Positions 2,515 to 47,120 of a DNA stretch of 64,000 bases are shown here, one piece after another. Numbering within the stretch: position 1 is the stretch's first letter; each line of letters opens with the position of its first letter. Position numbers and translations under genes: made by a program. Source of the DNA: Dehalococcoidia bacterium (GTDB taxonomy: Bacteria > Chloroflexota > Dehalococcoidia > Plut-88900); NCBI GenBank assembly GCA_965197585.1, contig OZ240215.1, positions 608,001-672,000 on the forward strand. Reading direction: 5' to 3'. Under the pieces are notes generated by a model. It made no database searches. It was given only the letters and a program-made list of their open reading frames with translations, and was not told the DNA's origin.

Positions 2515-3981
2515 ATTCAATCCATAACCCCCCTCGGCCCCGACTTCGCCAAGGCGTTCAACCCCAAGTCCGTAGCCTTAGTGGGCGCCTCCCGAGTCAC
2601 CTCGGCGAAGGGGCCCGGTTGGAGTAATCCCTCGGGCCAGTTCATCCCTTATCTCCTCAAGCTCGGCTATCCCGGCAAGATTTATCCCGTCAACCCCAAG
2701 GCCGACGAAATTCTCGGCCTCAAGTCTTACCCCTCTGTCTCCGCCCTCCCTGAGGTCCCCGAAATGGTGACCGTCTCCGTACCTGCCCGGTTCCTGGCAA
2801 CGGTGCTGGAAGACTGCGCCTCCGTCGGAGCGCTCAATGTCCACGTCTTCACCTCCGGCTTTTCCGAGACCTCCACGACCGAGGGCGTCGAGATGGAAAA
2901 GGTCGTCTGGGAGGTAGCCACCCGAAATGGCATCCGCGTCGTCGGGCCCAACTGCCTCGGCGTGCACTCTCCGGCGGCCCAGTTCTCCACCATCGGAGAT
3001 ATTACCAACAGGTCCGGTAGCGCCGCCTTTGTCGCCCAGAGCGGCGGGCATGCCATGGACTTCATATTCCGCGCCGCGGATGTTGGGATAGGAGTCAGTA
3101 AGGTAATCAGCTTTGGCAATGCACTGGTCCTCGAAAGCGCGGACTACCTTGAGTTCCTGGGCCAGGACGAGAGCACCAACGCCATTGGCATGTACATAGA
3201 GGGTGTCAGGAATGGCCCGAAATTGCTCAAGCTGGCTCGGGAGATCAACCCCCGTAAACCCGTAATCATCTGGAAGGGCGGCCTCAGCGAGTCAGGCTCA
3301 CGAGCCGCCGCCTCCCACACCGGCTCCCTGGCCGGTCAGGGCGCGATATGGAATGCCTTCTTCCGACAAACGGGTGCCGTCCGAGCCGGTTCCGTCGAAG
3401 AAGTCGTAGATGTTATGCAGGCCTTCAACCTCCTCCCCGCTCCTCGCAGCAACCGCCTAGCCATGATCGGCAGCGGTGGGGGCAACAGTGTCGCAGCCTC
3501 GGACATCTGCTCTGAAGAAGGCCTCGACATGGCTGAGCTGTCCTCCGAGACCAGCGCCCTCCTCCGAGAGTTCATCCCCGACGCCGGAAACAGCGTCCGA
3601 AACCCGGTCGACCTCTCATTCATGGCGAATGTCCGGGACAAGCAGCAACAGGCCGCGCGCCTCGTCACCGCAGACCCGTCCATCGACATGCTGCTAATGA
3701 TCCCCAGCCTAAACGAATACACCGACGTTACGTCCGAGCCTGAAAAGGCCGTTGCCACGGACTTCGCAGAGATCGCCAGGGACCATTCCAACGGCAAGCC
3801 TGTCGTCATCCTTTTGCCGGTCCGCATCCGGGACCCCCGCATCAAGATGGACTATCAGAAACTCCAGCAGGAGTTCTCCGAAGCGGGCCTCCTTGCTTAC
3901 ACATCGCTGCGCAGGGCATGCCGGTCCCTGGCCAAGTTCGTGCAGTACCACATGTTCCAGAGATCGCTTAGCTCGGGCTAG
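2515..3981 (+). CDS. CoA-binding protein, ADP-forming acyl-CoA synthetase alpha-subunit-like; start probably ATT 2515 (ORF track 2581)
   Basis: FNPKSVALVGAS, IYPVNPK, VVGPNCLG, QSGG, AAASHTGSLAG (phospho-His loop), NPVD. Confidence 0.88.
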   Translation: MQSITPLGPDFAKAFNPKSVALVGASRVTSAKGPGWSNPSGQFIPYLLKLGYPGKIYPVNPKADEILGLKSYPSVSALPEVPEMVTVSVPARFLATVLEDCASVGALNVHVFTSGFSETSTTEGVEMEKVVWEVATRNGIRVVGPNCLGVHSPAAQFSTIGDITNRSGSAAFVAQSGGHAMDFIFRAADVGIGVSKVISFGNALVLESADYLEFLGQDESTNAIGMYIEGVRNGPKLLKLAREINPRKPVIIWKGGLSESGSRAAASHTGSLAGQGAIWNAFFRQTGAVRAGSVEEVVDVMQAFNLLPAPRSNRLAMIGSGGGNSVAASDICSEEGLDMAELSSETSALLREFIPDAGNSVRNPVDLSFMANVRDKQQQAARLVTADPSIDMLLMIPSLNEYTDVTSEPEKAVATDFAEIARDHSNGKPVVILLPVRIRDPRIKMDYQKLQQEFSEAGLLAYTSLRRACRSLAKFVQYHMFQRSLSSG

Positions 3982-40958: not shown

Positions 40959-41735
40959 CTACCCCACCACCCCCACCCCATCCCCGACACTCACACTCCC
41001 CGGCCTCGAAACTGTGCCATAGACGCCGAAATAGGCGGCTTGTGGGTCGGGGCGGTAGCTCAGGATTACGCGGAGGGTGTTCATGTCACGCTCCCCCGTG
41101 TCAGGGTCATGGGTGGTTATGGCGCACCTCGGGTCCCTGGCCACGACCTTTACCCGCACCTCCGGCCCTACCGACACCTCTTCCCCTACCCATGAGTCCT
41201 CCTCGTGGGGCGTCGAGTTCTCGATGAAGAAGGTCGGGCGGAATCGCCGGTTGTCCATGGGCTTCGACACCCCTTCCTGCCCTCCCAGGAAGTCCAGCGA
41301 CGCCTGAGACAGTATGGAAATCGGGTATGTGTCCTGGCATTGGCCGGGCTTGTCGGACTTTATCAGCCGGATGTCGGCGCCGCAGAAGTGTGACAGAGCT
41401 TCGCAGAAGCTGCCCCCCACCACCCTGCCCCCGACCATGCGCCCGAATATGAACGTCTTCACCGTGTCCTCCGGCTCGGGCTTCCCTTCGATGGTGGAGC
41501 CGTCGGGAAAAGTCAGGGACAACCGCTCGGGGTGTAGCTGGTACTCGGCTTTGACCTGCACCATCCTGCTGATCTGACGCTGAGTCATTAGCCGTCCAGC
41601 CGCGTCGATGACGTGGAACCGCCGGTCTTCTATGATTCCTTCCTTACTAACGTGCACCGTTTGTGGGTGGCACAATCCCAGCGATTTTACGGGAGCGATA
41701 TTCAGTGCTTGTAGAGTGAGGGATTCGCTGCTCAT
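40959..41735 (-). CDS. MOSC-domain protein; start ATG 41735
   Basis: IAPVKS, EDRRF, RRFRP, PRCAITT.DP.TG, FGVYG...PG.VSVGD. Confidence 0.9.
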   Translation of the reverse strand: MSSESLTLQALNIAPVKSLGLCHPQTVHVSKEGIIEDRRFHVIDAAGRLMTQRQISRMVQVKAEYQLHPERLSLTFPDGSTIEGKPEPEDTVKTFIFGRMVGGRVVGGSFCEALSHFCGADIRLIKSDKPGQCQDTYPISILSQASLDFLGGQEGVSKPMDNRRFRPTFFIENSTPHEEDSWVGEEVSVGPEVRVKVVARDPRCAITTHDPDTGERDMNTLRVILSYRPDPQAAYFGVYGTVSRPGSVSVGDGVGVVG

Positions 41736-41813
41736 AGTTATTCGACTCGGCTCCTGATTTCGTTTCGGTTGCCCATAGACTCGACTCTCAGTATCATCAC
41801 CGCCGGTGGAACT

Positions 41814-42914
41814 TTGCACGCAATAGTAATAGGCGCCGGCGTGATCGGCGCTTCAATAGCTTACTATCTCAGCGCAGCGGGCGCACGCGTCACCGTGATC
41901 GAGCGTGGCAGGCCGGGTGGAGGGACTTCGGGGACGTCGACAGCCTACGTGAACGCCGTCCTAAAGCGGCCCGAGCATTACCACCGCTTCAGCCGTTTGG
42001 GTGTCGAGGCGTACGACCAACTGGAAGAAGAGCTGGGGCCAAACAGCGGAATCGGGTCTCGGGGAGCGCTCCATTGGCCCGGGTCGATGCCCGGTAGCCT
42101 TCGGACTTTCGACCGTACCCTTGCAGAGTTGGAAGAGTGGGATTACCCCCATGAAGTCCTTTCCCCGCAACAGGCTTCCAAGATTGAGCCCAACGTCCGA
42201 GTCAAAGACCACTCCGGCCCAGTCCTCTATCTCCCCAACGAACGTTGGGTAGAAGGCGAGACCCTGGCCCGTACCCTATGTGACAGGGCCGTCGATATGG
42301 GCGCTAGGCTCATGGACTCATGCCCGGTAATCGAGATAGTCTCTTCCGGTGGACGGGCCACGGGCGTTGATACCGGCCTTGGGTTCGTGGCTGGGGACCA
42401 GGTCGTCGTGGCGGCTGGTGTGTCGAGCGTGGGTATTCTGGCCCCCTTGGGCTATCGACTTCCATTGGGTCGCTCGGTTGGCGTGTTAGTCAAGTTTCGC
42501 CCCCCGACCCCCCTGCTCAACGGCGTTGTATATCCCGGCAAATACCACTGCCGCCCGACTGAGGGAGGTGGCGTCATAATCGGCAGCGACGATTTCGATA
42601 TCATGGCCGACGAGTACACCGATACTTCAAAGCCTCCCTCATGGCTCTACGGCCTCCGCGACATCGCCGCCCAGGACATACGCGGCCTCGGTTCCCTGCC
42701 CATCGAAGAATTCCGCATCGGCCTCCGGCCCTTGCCCTCCGACGGCCTCCCGCTAATCGGACCAGTTCCCGGCGTGGAGGGCGTCTATGCCGCGGTCATG
42801 CACAGCGGCATAACACTAGCAGCGATAGTTGGCCGTACGGTGGCGGAGGAGGTGGGGCGGGGGGAGGAGTTGGGGGTGGTGGGGGGGTATCGGTTGGACA
42901 GATCCATCTCGTAG
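41814..42914 (+). CDS. FAD-dependent oxidoreductase (DAO/glycine oxidase family); start TTG 41814
   Basis: IVIGAGVIG, VVAAG, GLRPLPSDGLP.IG, HSGITLA. Confidence 0.9.
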   Translation: MHAIVIGAGVIGASIAYYLSAAGARVTVIERGRPGGGTSGTSTAYVNAVLKRPEHYHRFSRLGVEAYDQLEEELGPNSGIGSRGALHWPGSMPGSLRTFDRTLAELEEWDYPHEVLSPQQASKIEPNVRVKDHSGPVLYLPNERWVEGETLARTLCDRAVDMGARLMDSCPVIEIVSSGGRATGVDTGLGFVAGDQVVVAAGVSSVGILAPLGYRLPLGRSVGVLVKFRPPTPLLNGVVYPGKYHCRPTEGGGVIIGSDDFDIMADEYTDTSKPPSWLYGLRDIAAQDIRGLGSLPIEEFRIGLRPLPSDGLPLIGPVPGVEGVYAAVMHSGITLAAIVGRTVAEEVGRGEELGVVGGYRLDRSIS

Positions 42915-42939
42915 ATGAGTATCAATCGCACCTCACTTC

Positions 42940-43350
42940 TTAAATTAAGAGAGTTGCGAACCCAGCTTGCTCGAAATTGTGGTCTTCAGCCAAGGCCTCC
43001 CAAATGCACCTTTGCCTCATCAGCACAAAACTCGCACAATCGGTTAGGCTCCAGTGTTGATCAGATCGTGAAGCGTACAGATCTAAGGCAGCCTCAAACT
43101 GATTGCTTGTCTGTGGGACAACTTCTACGTTAGGCTCGATTTTCAAGCTAGTGACCGTCTCTGCAGCACGTTGCCTTAGTTGCTGCCCTCCGGCGCTTAT
43201 GTAAGTCAGGAATTCAACTAATACCATTTCTGTGGTAACAATACGGAAAGGGGCAAGTTGTGTAGCCAGTCGCTTCGCCTTTTCATGCAGGGTGTCTCGG
43301 GGATTCAGCAGTGCAATCCAGTATCCAGTGTCAGCAAAAACCGTTTTCAC
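42940..43350 (-). CDS. vapC: PIN-domain (VapC) toxin
   Basis: VFADTGYWIAL, VLVE, SLTDCASF, EDHNFEQAGF. Confidence 0.92.
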   Translation of the reverse strand: MKTVFADTGYWIALLNPRDTLHEKAKRLATQLAPFRIVTTEMVLVEFLTYISAGGQQLRQRAAETVTSLKIEPNVEVVPQTSNQFEAALDLYASRSDQHWSLTDCASFVLMRQRCIWEALAEDHNFEQAGFATLLI

Positions 43351-43356
43351 TTGGGC

Positions 43357-44748
43357 CTATTCCTTTGGCCAGCCGTAAAGATAATGTTTGTAGTTCCTTG
43401 CACCGTCGGACGGTAGGCTATCGAATGCGCCGGCCGGAATGGATTCTCGGATTTTCCGGACCGTTTCCAAGACTGACAACCCTGCGTCTGGCTTTGATAT
43501 AGTTTCTTCGATGCTGACCATGTCTACAATGTCTTCCGGTGCCTTGAGCCCAGTTCGTTGCTGGAAGTCGTTAACGTCACGATAACTGGCACGGAAAGCT
43601 GTAACCAGATTCGCCCCCATATTACTGGCACTGATCAGGTCTGTCCGGGCTTTTCCCCATTCTCCGATTACCATAAAACCAATCCCGCGATTGGTGAAGG
43701 CTGCCTTGTTTGGCCTTAGAGTTAGCGCCTTGTCGAAATCTTGCATTGCACGGGCATGGTTGCCCTTTCTTAGATATGCAACTCCGCGATCGTTATATGC
43801 GTTGCAATTGTTCGGGTCTAGGGCCAATGCCTTGTCTATGTCACGGATGGCTTGGTCTAGGTTGCCTTTATCCGAATGTGCCGAGCCGCGCCAAACGTAT
43901 AAGAAGACACGGTTGGGGTCCAATTCTAATGCCCTATCGAGGTCTCGGATCACCCAGTCCAACTCACCTTTCCTGGCGAACGCAATCGCGCGTGCATAGT
44001 AGGCATAGATGTAGCCGGGGTCTAGGACTATCGACTCTCCAAAGTCCTCTATAGCTTTGTCCAAGTCGCCTTTTTTGCTGTGAGCTATTCCTCGCTCTAG
44101 ATAGAGGTAGGGGTCGCGTCTGTCCAGAGCCAAAGCTTTCTCGAAGTAAGTTATGGCGCGCTCATAGTTGGCTAGAAGGGAGTGAACGCTGCCAATGCTT
44201 ACGTAGGAGGTTGCATTATTGGGGTCTAGAGCTAACGCTTTTTCGTAATCCCGAATGGCGTGATCATAATCCGATTTGTGTATGTAGGAGTGACCACGAT
44301 AATTATAGGCTTCTATGTTGCGCGGATTTAGATCCAACGCATTGGAGTAGTCTTTTATGGCTCGGTTGTAATCACCTTTCTTAAAGTAGATGTTGCCACG
44401 ATTGTGATGCGCTTGCGATGAGGGCGCTAGATTTAAACTCGTGCTGAAATCTTGTAGCGCCAAGTCCAGATTGCCTATGCTTTCATAGGCAACTCCACGG
44501 TTCACATATAAGCCTGCTATATCCGGACAAAGTTCAATTGCCTTAGTGTAATAGGATATTGCTCCTTGGTAGTCATGCGTTTCCTGGCAAGACCAAGCTT
44601 GGTCAATTATATCGTCGTATGTGCCTACTACCTCTCCTGAACTGTGACGAATGCCAGCCAGATCGATGATTTTGGCCTGGGCGCTCTGATTGGGAGGGAA
44701 CCTTCCCTCGACTCTATAGATTGGCGTGATGGTCTCTGCAGTTACCAT
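43357..44748 (-). CDS. Tetratricopeptide-repeat protein with a C-terminal antitoxin-like tail
   Basis: ~10 TPRs (AYxNRG...A..D..KAL.LDP); ends VLETVRKIRESIPAGAFDSLPSDGARNYKHYLYGWPKE. Confidence 0.9.
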   Translation of the reverse strand: MVTAETITPIYRVEGRFPPNQSAQAKIIDLAGIRHSSGEVVGTYDDIIDQAWSCQETHDYQGAISYYTKAIELCPDIAGLYVNRGVAYESIGNLDLALQDFSTSLNLAPSSQAHHNRGNIYFKKGDYNRAIKDYSNALDLNPRNIEAYNYRGHSYIHKSDYDHAIRDYEKALALDPNNATSYVSIGSVHSLLANYERAITYFEKALALDRRDPYLYLERGIAHSKKGDLDKAIEDFGESIVLDPGYIYAYYARAIAFARKGELDWVIRDLDRALELDPNRVFLYVWRGSAHSDKGNLDQAIRDIDKALALDPNNCNAYNDRGVAYLRKGNHARAMQDFDKALTLRPNKAAFTNRGIGFMVIGEWGKARTDLISASNMGANLVTAFRASYRDVNDFQQRTGLKAPEDIVDMVSIEETISKPDAGLSVLETVRKIRESIPAGAFDSLPSDGARNYKHYLYGWPKE

Positions 44749-44820
44749 TTCTCACCTTACTTGCAGGATTAACTGCGAATACGTTAAGCAATTGTACAGC
44801 ATGGAAAGGAGAACGGGGCG

Positions 44821-46077
44821 CTATCTGCTCATTCGCTCAGCTTTAACTTCGCCCGGCACCCGAGGCTGTCTCAGCAGCATCACAAATACCGCTGTTGCCA
44901 CCAGTGCCCCGACGCATATGTAGTAGAACAGCCGGTAGGAGTCCTGCGCGTCGGCTATTCCCCCGGCCATGATCGGGCCGGCTACCCCTCCCGCCGTGGA
45001 CAAAAGCCGGAGCCCGCCTTGTATCGTGCCGAAGTTCCGGGCCCCGAACAGGTCGGCCTGCAGCGCCGACCGCACCGGTATCACCCCACCCGACCCCACC
45101 CCATAGAAAAATGACCCTGCTATAGCCAGCAAAGGTGTCGCAAGGTTGGCTAACAGCACCAACCCCATAGCTTGGATTGCCAGACTGACCACCACTACAG
45201 CCTTCTTATCGACGAAATCTGACAGCGATCCCATCCCCAGCCGACCTATCACGCTGAATAGCGGTACCCCCGCGGCCGCTGCGCCCGCCACGGTCAACGA
45301 TACGTTTCCATCCAGCTTCAGTGCAGAGATCAACTGGGAGATTACCGCCCCGTGGACCAGCGTCCACAGCGTAAACACAGCCCCCAGGTACCAGAAGGTC
45401 CGCGTGGATAAAGCCTCCTTGAAACGAAAGTCGACCTCCGTGCGTCTGGAGTAGACGGGGGAATTAGTTCCTGCCACGTCGCCGTCGGGCAGGAGTCCAT
45501 ATTGCTCAGGCCGATGCCTGAATACCAGGGCTAGCGGCAGGATGACCGCCCATGATGCAATACCCAACACTTGTACCGTGGTCCGCCACCCAAACTGGGA
45601 AATAAGCACCACGAGCAGGTAAACCATGATCCCGCTGAACGCCGAGCCCAGCGAGATGATCCCCATGCTCCGGCCTCTCTTTCGGCGAAACCACTGGGCC
45701 GCAGCAATATATGTAACGATTGGGTTGCACCCGCTGGACCCTACGGAGATGACCAGGAACATAACGTAGAACATCCCCAGCCCATCTATGTAGCCCAGAA
45801 GGAGAAACCCGACCCCGTAGATAACCCCGCCCACCATGATGACTCGCCTCGGGCCCAGCTTGTCGACCAGCACGCCCACCACCGGCGCAGCTATCCCGCT
45901 CTCCCCTTGCTGCAACGCAAAGGCCACAGAGGTCAGGGCTCTCGACCACCCGAACTCCTCGATAATCGGGTCGAACAGCGCCGAGAATCCATAGAAGAAT
46001 GCCCCCGTAATGATCGACACCGGTATTGAGCCGATGACGATCCACCATCCGTAGAACAATTTGGGTCTGGGAGTTAT
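44821..46077 (-). CDS. MFS transporter; start ATA 46077 or TTG 46059
   Basis: LFYGW, GVLVDKLGPR, WFRRKRG, LSDFVD, FGARNFG. Confidence 0.9.
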   Translation of the reverse strand: MTPRPKLFYGWWIVIGSIPVSIITGAFFYGFSALFDPIIEEFGWSRALTSVAFALQQGESGIAAPVVGVLVDKLGPRRVIMVGGVIYGVGFLLLGYIDGLGMFYVMFLVISVGSSGCNPIVTYIAAAQWFRRKRGRSMGIISLGSAFSGIMVYLLVVLISQFGWRTTVQVLGIASWAVILPLALVFRHRPEQYGLLPDGDVAGTNSPVYSRRTEVDFRFKEALSTRTFWYLGAVFTLWTLVHGAVISQLISALKLDGNVSLTVAGAAAAGVPLFSVIGRLGMGSLSDFVDKKAVVVVSLAIQAMGLVLLANLATPLLAIAGSFFYGVGSGGVIPVRSALQADLFGARNFGTIQGGLRLLSTAGGVAGPIMAGGIADAQDSYRLFYYICVGALVATAVFVMLLRQPRVPGEVKAERMSR

Positions 46078-46111
46078 TGGGCCATCCTCCGCTCGGTCTT
46101 TTCCCTTATCC

Positions 46112-46969
46112 TCAGGCAGTATTTTGGTGGTTGGAAGGGCGAATTGCTTCTTCCCGATTGACCCGCGCCTGTGTCATCCCTGCTTCCAAAGTTTGGGCGT
46201 AGATCGACTCCACGTAATTACGTCTGAGCACCGCAATCCCCGATTCCGTCAGACTCCTGGGAATAGAGTACTCCTCCATCATCCCCTCTAATGCTATAGG
46301 GCTGGCGTCCTGTGTCTTCAGGCATCTCGCCATCGACTCCAGAGTGCTTAGCGTTATAGCCTGCGCTTCCGCACTGGTAAACCCGTTGGCAGACCCGAAC
46401 TCTACGAAGGCCTTGAGCACCGGCCATATAAACGTTTGACCCGCCGCGTGGAGCAATACGAACGTGTCCATCGCCTCCTCCCGGATGGTGATGACATGTT
46501 CGCAAAAGCGGCCCCAATAGGATTCCAGGTCTCGGATACGCTCCGGGTCCGAACCCGGTTCGGGGCAGAGGGCCAGGTAGCCCAGCCTCAGTGACATATA
46601 CGATGTCGGGAAGACCCAGGCCAGGGTGCATTTGGAAGACAGATACCGGCGGTAGAATGACAGGGGCAGCGATGCAGCGCCCGCGGCGACTATCTGCCCG
46701 TCCCCGATCCCCGGACCGATCTCCTCCATCAGAACCCCCATCTGATCGGGCCTGACAAGCGGATAGATTACATCGGCTCCTTCGCATGCCTCCCGGTTGT
46801 CGGCGTAGACAGTAATACCGTATTTCTCTCGGAGCTCTGCACACCGCTCCGGCCGTCTGTGGGAGGCAACCAACTCGACTCCCTGCGCTCGTTCCTCGGG
46901 CCCGGTCATTGCCGCCAACATAACCTCCCCGAACCCGCCCGCGCCGATAATTGCCACTCGTCGAATCAT
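46112..46969 (-). CDS. Pyrroline-5-carboxylate reductase-like protein (divergent)
   Basis: IIGAGGFG Rossmann motif, VRPDQ, and a ProC-like C-terminal arrangement with degenerate SPGGTT (PRSLT). Confidence 0.7.
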   Translation of the reverse strand: MIRRVAIIGAGGFGEVMLAAMTGPEERAQGVELVASHRRPERCAELREKYGITVYADNREACEGADVIYPLVRPDQMGVLMEEIGPGIGDGQIVAAGAASLPLSFYRRYLSSKCTLAWVFPTSYMSLRLGYLALCPEPGSDPERIRDLESYWGRFCEHVITIREEAMDTFVLLHAAGQTFIWPVLKAFVEFGSANGFTSAEAQAITLSTLESMARCLKTQDASPIALEGMMEEYSIPRSLTESGIAVLRRNYVESIYAQTLEAGMTQARVNREEAIRPSNHQNTA

Positions 46970-47120
46970 TGGATCTTTCACTTTCCCTTGCATTAAGAGT
47001 CCGGCAATGGGCAAAGCCGGCACCGGCCATTCTACCGCCCGGCTCCCTTCCTCGTCTTTCCGTATCCCTCCCCCGACTTGCACATCATCCCGGCATTTCC
47101 GCTACTATGGCCCATCTCCG

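Follow-up and report, generated by a model that had tools for sequence, protein, structure and literature searches.

What would a protein of some ten TPRs be doing immediately upstream of a VapC-type PIN-domain gene, where a small antitoxin might be expected? This question is raised by two genes on the reverse strand of the window, a 64,000-nucleotide stretch of the genome of a Dehalococcoidia bacterium. The TPR gene (43357..44748, reverse strand, ATG start, 463 amino acids, stop codon included) is supported by matches to Pfam TPR families and by full-length orthologues of 42-53% identity; the PIN gene (42940..43350, reverse strand, GTG start, 136 amino acids, stop codon included) follows on the same strand after a spacer of six nucleotides (TAG gcccaa GTG). 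The interpretation favoured here, with a probability of about 0.72, is that the pair constitutes a horizontally acquired two-gene toxin/antitoxin (TA) cassette of the VapBC type, composed of a chimeric antitoxin and a VapC20-like PIN ribonuclease. A Shine-Dalgarno-like sequence, AAGGTGAG, precedes the ATG of the TPR gene (44751..44758, reverse strand), and another, AAGGAA, falls within the final codons of that gene (43360..43365, reverse strand) in a position to serve the PIN gene; similar sequences occupy the same place at the junctions of eight orthologous loci, and the two genes are probably expressed together. A promoter and terminator scan, which returned one promoter-like site where 2.3 were expected, was not informative, and Rfam gave no match over positions 41000-47000 or over the inserts of congeners.

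An earlier, sequence-only reading of this DNA described an AT-richer two-gene cassette between metabolic genes, and the G+C content of the cassette (0.490; the 3-kb flanks have 0.604 and 0.589) and the genes that flank it (an FAD oxidoreductase and an MFS transporter) agree with that description, as do the ORF list, Pfam and an AlphaFold2 model with its account of a 463-residue protein of about ten TPRs that ends six nucleotides before the PIN gene. The cassette was inserted at this site, because in three genomes of the same genus the flanking genes are directly adjacent (31 nucleotides apart in G171, approximately 120 in G102 and approximately 116 in G137). The insertion site is thus empty in three of five congeners, while a fourth carries its TPR-PIN pair at a different location. 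The segment without counterpart at the junction of the FAD oxidoreductase and MFS genes of the congeners (42902..44851, no strand assigned) comprises the inserted cassette and short flanks. No inverted repeats were found in or around the cassette, including upstream of the TPR gene (positions 42600-45100), and a repeat search for the ends of a mobile element yielded only short repeats at chance level. The flanks are not syntenic among TPR-PIN loci, and the G+C content of the cassette is below that of both flanks in the window and in all nine other loci, although by only 0.01-0.03 in L006. The neighbours of eight TPR-PIN loci are housekeeping genes or other TA genes (the latter in two loci).

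The PIN gene product matches PF01850 (E 1.4e-10, 42.3 bits versus a cut-off of 23.6), and among solved chains it is closest to VapC20, an endonuclease specific for 23S rRNA (5wzf, E 2.7e-12). An alignment of 35 family members shows no variation at D7, E46, D104 or D123. With the NCBIfam VapC models, the protein does not reach the cut-offs (24.9 bits versus 73.6, and 19.9 versus 80). The earlier description of an intact-looking VapC is upheld by PF01850 and the four invariant acidic residues, with the correction that the start codon is GTG. Its toxicity and its target RNA are inferred, as is the function proposed below for the array.

The TPR gene product matches TPR_1 of Pfam in nine stretches (E 1.3e-76), and the best 25 of its 34 matching Pfam families are TPR, TPR-like and other helical-repeat models, with no DNA-binding domain among these 25. 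Residues 1-40 (44629..44748, reverse strand) form an N-terminal stretch that is predicted to be disordered (pLDDT 23-38) and is poorly conserved (mean pairwise identity 0.23); its opening residues, MVTxT..P, are shared by most of the aligned orthologues. Residues 41-376 (43621..44628, reverse strand) are modelled by AlphaFold2 as a superhelical array of about ten TPRs, with 20 repeat helices over residues 40-376 and pLDDT mostly above 90. In a Foldseek search with the full model, the best matches were designed consensus TPR proteins and the TPR domain of O-GlcNAc transferase: generic TPR structures only, and nothing specific. Residues 377-415 (43504..43620, reverse strand) are modelled as helical and form a cap and linker, particular to this family, between the array and the C-terminal tail; the cap helices span residues 381-412 (pLDDT approximately 85-91), and the alignment reveals the motifs LPxDI..M.SIEE and an invariant NMG (N376, M377 and G378).

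Residues 416-463 (43360..43503, reverse strand) are the predicted PIN-neutralising tail, consisting of helix 421-436 and then LPSDGARNYKHYLYGWPKE; the printed C-terminus of the protein is ...IRESIPAGAFDSLPSDGARNYKHYLYGWPKE. When modelled alone, the tail region has low pLDDT and is unstructured, whereas the array and cap are confidently modelled. The last 87 residues of the protein have no match to PF01954 or any other Pfam family, the tail by itself gave only a chance-level match to DJC28_CD in Pfam at E values up to 10, it has no relative in the PDB by sequence, and no PADLOC model matches the tail or the PIN. In its last 50 or so residues the protein resembles small AF2212-like antitoxins, whose C-terminal tail is alike: the homologues P0006 and P0005 are 85-residue proteins with a PF01954 head and the same tail, which align with 47-55% identity over approximately 79% of a 67-residue query, from about VSIEE to the end. 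The PF01954 head is also present in the upstream ORFs of the PIN loci L002, L007 and L030. The MAFFT alignment pairs DIVDMVSIEE with EVVVSIED, but since the cap is modelled as helical, homology to the small AF2212-like antitoxins is claimed only from about VSIEE onward. The idea that residues 377-415 are a remnant of AF2212-like strands was considered and rejected on the grounds of the same helical model.

The sequence-only reading had stated that a C-terminus of the LPxDxxxxxxHYLYG type is typical of small antitoxins encoded upstream of this PIN subfamily, and 80 PIN loci that were collected through the PIN alone bear this out: in 76 of them the upstream ORF ends in the tail motif, which in the alignments reads S.LE...SxP...LPxDxxxNxKHYLYGxPK, and 56 of these ORFs are of 140 residues or fewer. 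The small tail antitoxins, of about 100 residues, overlap the PIN start by four nucleotides (45 loci) or one nucleotide (19 loci). A profile search with the tail, a check that had been proposed, found 486 tail clusters at E<=0.001; among the 150 listed, 112 are of 140 residues or fewer and 128 have the motif no more than 15 residues from the C-terminal end. No antitoxin annotation of tail-family proteins was present in the sources examined, where names are absent or read 'hypothetical protein'. The ORF list contains no small antitoxin ORF adjoining the TPR-PIN pair, as had been claimed, but the claim does not extend to the whole genome, which encodes, approximately 2.06 Mb away and beside a truncated PIN paralogue, a stand-alone small antitoxin that shares the tail.

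A structure prediction of the tail with the PIN, also proposed earlier, places the tail over the active site of the PIN. The ipSAE of this predicted complex was 0.85, 0.87 and 0.89 in three runs, against 0.00 for the best of three controls. Among solved complexes, 58 of 80 attain this mark, as do 2 of 110 mismatched pairs; these counts are a rough guide, since custom alignments were used, and part of the score may stem from solved VapBC complexes that the model has memorised. At least 89% of the contacts are common to the runs, the pLDDT of the partner is at least 73, and the predicted interface comprises residues 418-463 of the TPR protein and residues 8-10, 46, 99, 101 and 122-124 of the PIN. 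The tail, disordered alone, would upon binding place helix 421-436 along the helices of the PIN, and its NYKHYLYG end would sit on the catalytic pocket, by D7, E46, D104 and D123, blocking RNA cleavage. This predicted geometry bears on the notion that the genes are not a TA pair at all, and that the TPR protein is an adaptor that uses its tail to dock an active PIN ribonuclease onto a cellular RNA-processing complex. Such a role would suit a TPR protein without a DNA-binding domain, and passages of Kaur, Iyer, Burroughs and Aravind (2021, PMC8195603) describe TPR and PIN working together in single-protein conflict systems. However, an interface predicted to lie beside all four catalytic acids suggests an inhibitory mode, and the same tail occurs on antitoxin-type proteins of about 100 residues whose genes overlap the PIN start; the adaptor role is very improbable.

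Of the outcomes that had been named as fatal to the sequence-only reading, two do not apply to the fusion: it occurs elsewhere, and it is not a frameshift artefact. A search for TPR-tail genes in other genomes found 13 further loci, all in Dehalococcoidia: eight full-length orthologues (42-53% identity, as above), four more, and one short form. Counting the window, 14 such loci are recorded, 13 of which came from a scan of a collection with one genome per species (185,579 species), and the long form is present in three of 401 genomes sampled from the class. A PIN of the same subfamily follows the TPR-tail gene in all 12 loci checked (two of these PINs are truncated). The gap between the two genes is five or six nucleotides in the 12 long forms; in the short form, L021, they overlap by four nucleotides. 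In a PIN tree, the TPR-linked PINs cluster with two changes, a number as low as which was obtained in none of 500 shuffles, and a single clade of TPR-linked PINs is consistent with a tree test (p-AU 0.43).

A related objection is that a free small antitoxin is made from an internal start at M377 or M410, the full-length fusion being irrelevant or decaying. M377 is invariant in 12 sequences, and some metagenomic ORFs begin exactly at these methionines (P0002, 86 residues; P0004, 53 residues), which may be genuine short forms, fragments or split genes; locus scans of metagenome and genome contigs with P0002 found no confirmed relative. On the other hand, no Shine-Dalgarno-like sequence lies ahead of M377 or M410, M410 is replaced by leucine in L004, M377 belongs to a confidently folded helix junction in the AlphaFold2 model, and the upstream 376 residues are open and conserved in 12 long orthologues. 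An internal start, which had also been named as a possible refutation, is therefore improbable, although the short ORFs of other metagenomes still speak for it.

The favoured reading, that of a chimeric VapBC-type antitoxin, would then imply that the protein retains the C-terminal tail of about 50 residues with which small AF2212-like antitoxins counter PINs of this subfamily, and that a superhelix of ten TPRs, with the helical cap, has taken the place of the AF2212-like (AbrB-related) head of those antitoxins. Because a TPR array binds proteins and not DNA, the toxin is most likely controlled by what the array binds or by its effect on the stability of the tail, rather than by operator binding. 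That the array is the sensor of a trigger is a tentative proposal, and that the trigger is a phage protein is more doubtful than the proposal itself; a sensor or anti-phage role of the pair is nevertheless plausible.

The cassette may instead be a plain addiction or selfish TA system, in which a ligand-free array replaces the dimerising head as a stable or oligomeric scaffold for the tail, and the toxin is released only by loss of expression together with proteolysis of the disordered linker and tail. The genomic context is typical of chromosomal TA cassettes, the genome is rich in TA genes (25 PF01850 matches in 3.43 Mb), and the array resembles generic consensus TPRs in the Foldseek search. 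In addition, the tail is doubled in some family members (P0007, P0055 and P0069), suggesting that what counts is how many tails a PIN dimer has at its disposal. Against this, an array of 336 residues that has been kept undecayed at 40-81% pairwise identity over nine genomes would be costly as a mere scaffold, and other N-terminal domains on the same tail are common to defence candidates. Simple addiction is possible but somewhat doubtful.

These other N-terminal domains were compared with the PADLOC models, and for several of them the match is to a protein known or proposed to act in phage defence. PDC-M32A is matched by all five mid-sized upstream proteins of the PIN loci (E 1e-25 to 2e-54, covering profile positions approximately 1-170 or 1-257 of 375) and by nine of 17 further tail proteins tested; PDC-M24B is matched by two tail proteins, and PD-T4-10_B by one, through the N-terminus of that model. 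A search of the Protein Atlas with the PDC-M32A-like head gave unnamed clusters and a weak DUF7946 lead only. The heads named so far for the tail family are the TPR array and the PDC-M32A-like, DUF1828/PDC-M24B-like, DUF6575/PD-T4-10B-like and DUF2806 domains.

Such associations raise the prospect of sensor-gated abortive infection, in which a phage protein binds the TPR array, the tail leaves the PIN or is proteolysed, and translation is shut down. This would be an extension of the TA-cassette reading and is compatible with it. TPR arrays are used for sensing in Avs-type systems, and the cassette is patchy and mobile, as its presence in three of 401 genomes and its absence from the same site in congeners attest. 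The sharing of the tail with domains that match PDC-M32A, PDC-M24B and PD-T4-10_B is circumstantial evidence in the same direction, and PD-T4-10 is presented in passages of Vassallo et al. (2022, PMC9519451) as an experimentally shown TA-type Abi system. The evidence from the locus itself is less favourable: the flanks in the window are metabolic genes, there are no defence genes among the 33 neighbouring ORFs of eight TPR-PIN loci, and the PIN has no match among 50,697 phage records and matches in only seven of 72,556 plasmids. The array, moreover, is about as conserved as the PIN (mean identity 0.49 among nine orthologues, versus 0.59), its variability being no more than that of the PIN and without sign of hypervariability. 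In PADLOC it matches generic TPR models only, over 62-88 residues; for example, residues 153-214 match PDC-M71B at profile positions 124-185 of 515 (E 6.8e-7), and neither PDC-M71 nor any generic TPR defence model is matched over most of its length, with the matches of orthologues being similarly short and shifting in position. Abortive infection is rather unlikely. A broader proposal, itself doubtful, treats the tail as a transferable plug: fitting one family of PIN ribonucleases, it would have been grafted onto interchangeable protein-binding heads to yield a family of ligand-gated ribonuclease switches. Where the head is the TPR array, binding of a phage or stress protein in its groove would remove the plug and bring on abortive infection or dormancy.

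Type II antitoxins normally consist of a DNA-binding head and a toxin-binding tail, and here the tail and toxin are fixed while the head is exchanged, in a natural domain-swap series that holds the neutralising element constant and varies the regulatory element, the TPR array being one head. If the heads are sensors, the series would show how a plain VapBC system becomes a triggered immune or stress switch, and the pair would be a compact two-gene model for sensor-gated toxin release. The TPR-tail design is rare and its hosts are uncultured Dehalococcoidia, so its general importance depends on the wider tail family.

Literature searches found no TPR-fused antitoxin among the papers listed, though supplementary tables may contain such architectures. 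TPR repeats and a PIN nuclease occur together in the predicted TPR-GreA/B-C-PIN conflict systems (passages of PMC8195603), but those are single giant proteins with GreA/B-C, variable N-terminal effectors and a divergent PIN, and lack an antitoxin tail, whereas the window pair is encoded by two separate genes without a GreA/B-C match. The likeness to Avs is an analogy of function only, as neither window protein has a STAND NTPase according to Pfam and PADLOC. PDC-M32 and PD-T4-10 are related through sister architectures of the tail family, which match PDC-M32A and the N-terminus of PD-T4-10B; the window protein has a TPR array in place of those domains, and its PIN matches no PADLOC model. In CapRel SJ46, an antitoxin element doubles as an infection sensor (passages of bioRxiv 10.1101/2023.12.08.570793), a concept that the window pair may share, its sensing being putative; CapRel SJ46 is, however, one polypeptide, with a tRNA pyrophosphokinase toxin and no repeats.

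Closer parallels are found among TA systems. Like VapBC systems of type II (toxin VapC20, 5wzf), the cassette has a PIN with four conserved acidic residues, a co-expressed antitoxin gene immediately upstream, an arrangement that is kept in 12 long orthologous loci, and an antitoxin C-terminus that is predicted to wrap the toxin and cover its active site. It differs in that its antitoxin lacks any head of the DNA-binding kind (AbrB, RHH, Phd or HTH) and has about ten TPRs and 463 residues versus roughly 80-100, and in that a six-nucleotide gap takes the place of the usual overlap of one or four nucleotides. The pairing of COG2880/DUF104/AF2212-like (PF01954) antitoxins with PIN toxins was reported by Makarova, Wolf and Koonin (2009, PMC2701414), passages of which describe the AF2212-like head as AbrB-related and contain no description of a tail or TPR fusion; the window protein shares with these antitoxins a homologous tail and the same PIN subfamily, but not the PF01954 head. 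The multidomain PanA (Panacea) antitoxins, in passages of Ernits et al. (2023, PMC10440598), are proposed to combine a globular sensor domain with a separate short C-terminal neutraliser, and this modular, re-usable architecture resembles that of the TPR protein. Panacea (DUF4065) is not among the best 25 of the 34 Pfam matches of the TPR protein, and here it is the tail and the toxin that are constant and the N-terminal domain that varies.

The two genes form a genuine VapBC-type cassette that is conserved, rare and mobile and has a TPR-headed antitoxin; the probability that it is a toxin/antitoxin (TA) pair neutralised by the C-terminal tail of the TPR protein is put at roughly 70%. A 463-aa TPR-tail ORF with an ATG start (43357..44748, minus strand; Pfam TPR_1 in nine stretches, E 1.3e-76) is followed, after a spacer of 6 nt in the junction sequence, by a 136-aa PIN ORF with a GTG start (42940..43350, minus strand; PF01850, E 1.4e-10). 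The G+C content of the pair is 0.490, versus 0.604 and 0.589 in the flanks, and the bordering genes encode an FAD oxidoreductase and an MFS transporter. The sequence-only reading had described two genes, a 6-nt spacer, the C-terminus, TPRs, low G+C content and metabolic flanks, and was accurate: ORFs, junction, Pfam matches and G+C content all agree with it. According to the ORF listing, no small ORF fit to be a separate antitoxin adjoins the pair. A short peptide, MVT.T..PIP...E.R (encoded at 44720-44748, minus strand), opens most TPR-tail proteins in an alignment of N-termini, and is followed by a disordered, otherwise unconserved stretch. The peptide may serve as a signal for degradation or recognition.

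The tail (residues 416-463) is a genuine antitoxin module, and its linkage is to this PIN subfamily. A word-indexed search with the last 67 residues returned five proteins, among them two of 85 aa (P0005 and P0006) that carry an N-terminal AF2212-like domain (PF01954) and the same C-terminal tail, ...SDGARNYKHYLYGWP. A 2009 study (PMC2701414) predicted that this domain (PF01954/COG2880/DUF104) is an AbrB-related antitoxin that pairs with PIN toxins. A search from the PIN protein alone confirmed 182 relatives in the genome-contig collection, of which the best 80 were kept; in 76 of these 80 loci the motif D-x(5-8)-[YH][LIMV][YH], sought within the last 25 residues of the ORF that runs up to the PIN start, was present, and degenerate versions occupied the other four. 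The sequence-only reading had rightly called the LPxDxxxxxxHYLYG C-terminus typical of small antitoxins preceding this PIN subfamily. Of the 76 motif-bearing ORFs, 56 have at most 140 aa, three have 141-200 aa and 17 are longer than 200 aa; these lengths run from the first in-frame start and may be overestimates. An exhaustive profile search with the tail, a check that the sequence-only reading had proposed, yielded 486 clusters at E<=0.001 (63 at E<=1e-10); the 150 clusters listed include 112 of no more than 140 aa (median 102) and 128 in which the motif lies within 15 residues of the C-terminus. The tail itself had no match in Pfam or the PDB. Tandem double tails occur in P0007, P0055 and P0069, and by motif count also in P0042, P0094, P0112, P0124 and P0129; a doubled tail might correspond to the pair of active sites in a PIN dimer. 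P0085 has its tail mid-protein, ahead of a DUF1828 domain. P0034 (732 aa), with 11 separate stretches matching the tail profile and odd Pfam matches (DUF2175, G-gamma), is likely to be repetitive or of low complexity and not a relative.

The possibility that the fusion was unique was dispelled by its recurrence. In eight of the best 80 PIN loci the upstream protein aligns over its full length with the window protein at 42-53% identity; a ninth (L021) has a 226-aa short form beside a truncated PIN, and the metagenomic representatives P0017, P0022 and P0029 are of the same kind. A scan of the genome-contig collection with a profile of the tail plus the preceding cap (residues 377-415) found 13 loci that also cover the cap, all in Dehalococcoidia assemblies. 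Four are new (L090, L092, L093 and L095), with upstream ORFs of 338-464 aa and PIN genes beginning 6 nt downstream, one of them encoding a possibly truncated PIN of 112 aa. A gap of 5-6 nt before PIN is found only with the long TPR form; among the best 80 loci, the overlap of small antitoxin genes with the PIN start is 4 nt in 45 loci and 1 nt in 19. Mean pairwise identity among nine TPR-PIN pairs is 0.23 for residues 1-40, 0.49 for the TPR array, 0.50 for the cap, 0.55 for the tail and 0.59 for PIN; these values indicate that the array is constrained rather than hypervariable. In a tree of 35 PIN sequences the TPR-linked PINs cluster, requiring two changes, a number as low as which was reached in none of 500 label shuffles. 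A single clade was not rejected (p-AU 0.43), so that one origin of the TPR-linked PINs would be compatible with the sequences.

A free short tail product might instead be made from an internal start at M377 or M410, which had been raised as an objection to the fusion. M377 is invariant and M410 mostly conserved among orthologues, and two ORFs from other metagenomes (P0002 and P0004) were called from the equivalents of these residues. However, M410 is replaced by Leu in locus L004, and neither Met codon is preceded by a Shine-Dalgarno-like sequence, unlike the starts of the TPR gene (AAGGTGAG) and the PIN gene (AAGGAA), and an internal start is given a low probability. P0002, P0003 and P0004, short metagenomic ORFs with about 70% identity to the window protein's tail or cap plus tail, begin at M377 or M410 equivalents or have an unrelated stretch in front; they could be fragments of disrupted TPR-tail genes or genuine short forms.

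Structure was predicted for the TPR protein alone and for its tail with PIN. The AlphaFold2 monomer (12-row alignment; pLDDT 83.1, pTM 0.72) has a disordered N-terminus (residues 1-40), twenty repeat helices (40-376), a confident helical cap (381-412) and a low-confidence tail with one helix (421-436). Its only Foldseek matches were to TPR superhelices of a generic kind, namely consensus designs and O-GlcNAc transferase. The closest solved sequence relative of PIN is VapC20, a 23S rRNA-specific endonuclease (5wzf, E 2.7e-12), and the catalytic acids D7, E46, D104 and D123 are invariant across 35 family members. Prediction of the tail with its VapC, as the sequence-only reading had recommended, placed it beside the active site: PIN and the last 67 residues, with 35-row alignments each, gave ipSAE values of 0.85, 0.87 and 0.89, versus 0.00 for the best of three controls, with at least 89% of contacts in common between runs and partner pLDDT of at least 73. 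Of 80 solved complexes, 58 reach this ipSAE mark, as do 2 of 110 mismatched pairs; the counts are approximate here because the alignments were self-supplied. Solved VapBC complexes may add to the score through model memory, even though the PDB has no relative of the tail. The predicted interface comprises residues 22-67 of the 67-aa piece (418-463 of the protein) and PIN residues 8-10, 12-22, 46, 49-51, 57-75, 99, 101 and 122-124, which flank all four catalytic acids. The model thus supports binding of PIN by the tail in the inhibitory manner of VapB.

The cassette is an insertion at the FAD-oxidoreductase/MFS junction: these genes lie 31 to ~120 nt apart in three of five congeneric genomes (G171, G102 and G137). 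The other two, G120 and G217, have a different GC-rich stretch of 1.1-1.2 kb there (L089 ~2633-3852 and L085 ~410-1500, respectively), in which neither a convincing ORF nor an Rfam match was found; insertions seem to favour this junction as a hot spot. A TPR-PIN pair is present in G217 too, with 66% nucleotide identity, at another genomic site. Apart from weak matches of luciferase-like paralogues, no genes are common to the flanks of the window's cassette and those of other TPR-PIN loci. In all nine other TPR-PIN loci the cassette has lower G+C content than both flanks, in L006 by just 0.01-0.03. A tail match was found in 44 of 401 sampled genomes of the class, and in a long frame also covering the cap in three (G000, the genome holding the window, G217 and G144), a count of long frames alone; several shorter or interrupted frames also reach the cap region. 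Among 50,697 phage records none matched PIN, and among 72,556 plasmids seven did.

G000 also encodes a small tail protein (83-92 aa; PF01954, E 3.6e-11) directly upstream of a PIN paralogue (L002, G000:C1:2706513-2709671; antitoxin 1492-1770, PIN remnant 1235-1567, both minus strand). The paralogue has an in-frame stop near residue 85 and is without the last two catalytic acids; its orphan AF2212-like antitoxin might cross-neutralise the window's PIN. With 25 PF01850 matches (24 above the cut-off), G000 is TA-rich, and its VapC repertoire is large for a genome of 3.43 Mb.

The sequence-only reading had further proposed that a ligand, for example a phage protein, could release the PIN RNase. 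Around eight TPR-PIN loci, 33 neighbouring ORFs include no recognised defence genes. They have housekeeping functions, except that two loci also contain further TA genes: L004 has a PIN and an MNT nucleotidyltransferase, and L013 has HicA. Against the PADLOC defence models the TPR array matched only short generic stretches of TPR models. The heads of 30 long tail-bearing representatives comprise six TPRs, two AF2212-like, two DUF2806, two DUF1828, one DUF6575, one SDR fragment, one odd repeat protein and 15 without a Pfam family. The candidate defence protein PDC-M32A is matched over its first 170-257 positions by this last group and by mid-sized proteins encoded upstream of PIN in five loci (L017, L045, L014, L059 and L043; E 1e-25 to 2e-54 for these five). 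DUF1828 tail proteins match PDC-M24B, and the one with DUF6575 resembles the N-terminal part of PD-T4-10_B, the toxin of a validated TA-type abortive-infection system (PMC9519451). The PDC-M32A-like family (230-337 aa; also P0045, P0047, P0077, P0081 and P0139) has no Pfam match, starts with ..F.GGRFE..G.LD.DVL.EL and ends in the same tail. No PADLOC model covers its PIN partner, and the combination looks like an unlisted PIN-linked variant of the candidate system to which PDC-M32A belongs. Because the tail is found on differing heads, some common to defence proteins, it behaves as a constant plug on interchangeable heads. In this it resembles the multidomain PanA antitoxins, in which Panacea is the proposed sensor and neutralisation is carried out by a distinct short element (PMC10440598); by this analogy a sensor role of the TPR head would be plausible, and its being the trigger sensor for defence or dormancy is judged rather unlikely.

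Full-text literature searches found no description of a TPR-fused antitoxin among the papers listed. The window protein is not a member of Avs/STAND, because it has no NTPase, nor one of the TPR-GreA/B-C-PIN proteins described in PMC8195603. Its tail is from the same lineage as that of AF2212-like antitoxins, and the protein differs from them in being without the PF01954 domain. Judging from sequence, the cassette would work like VapBC, from which it differs in that its antitoxin has no DNA-binding head.
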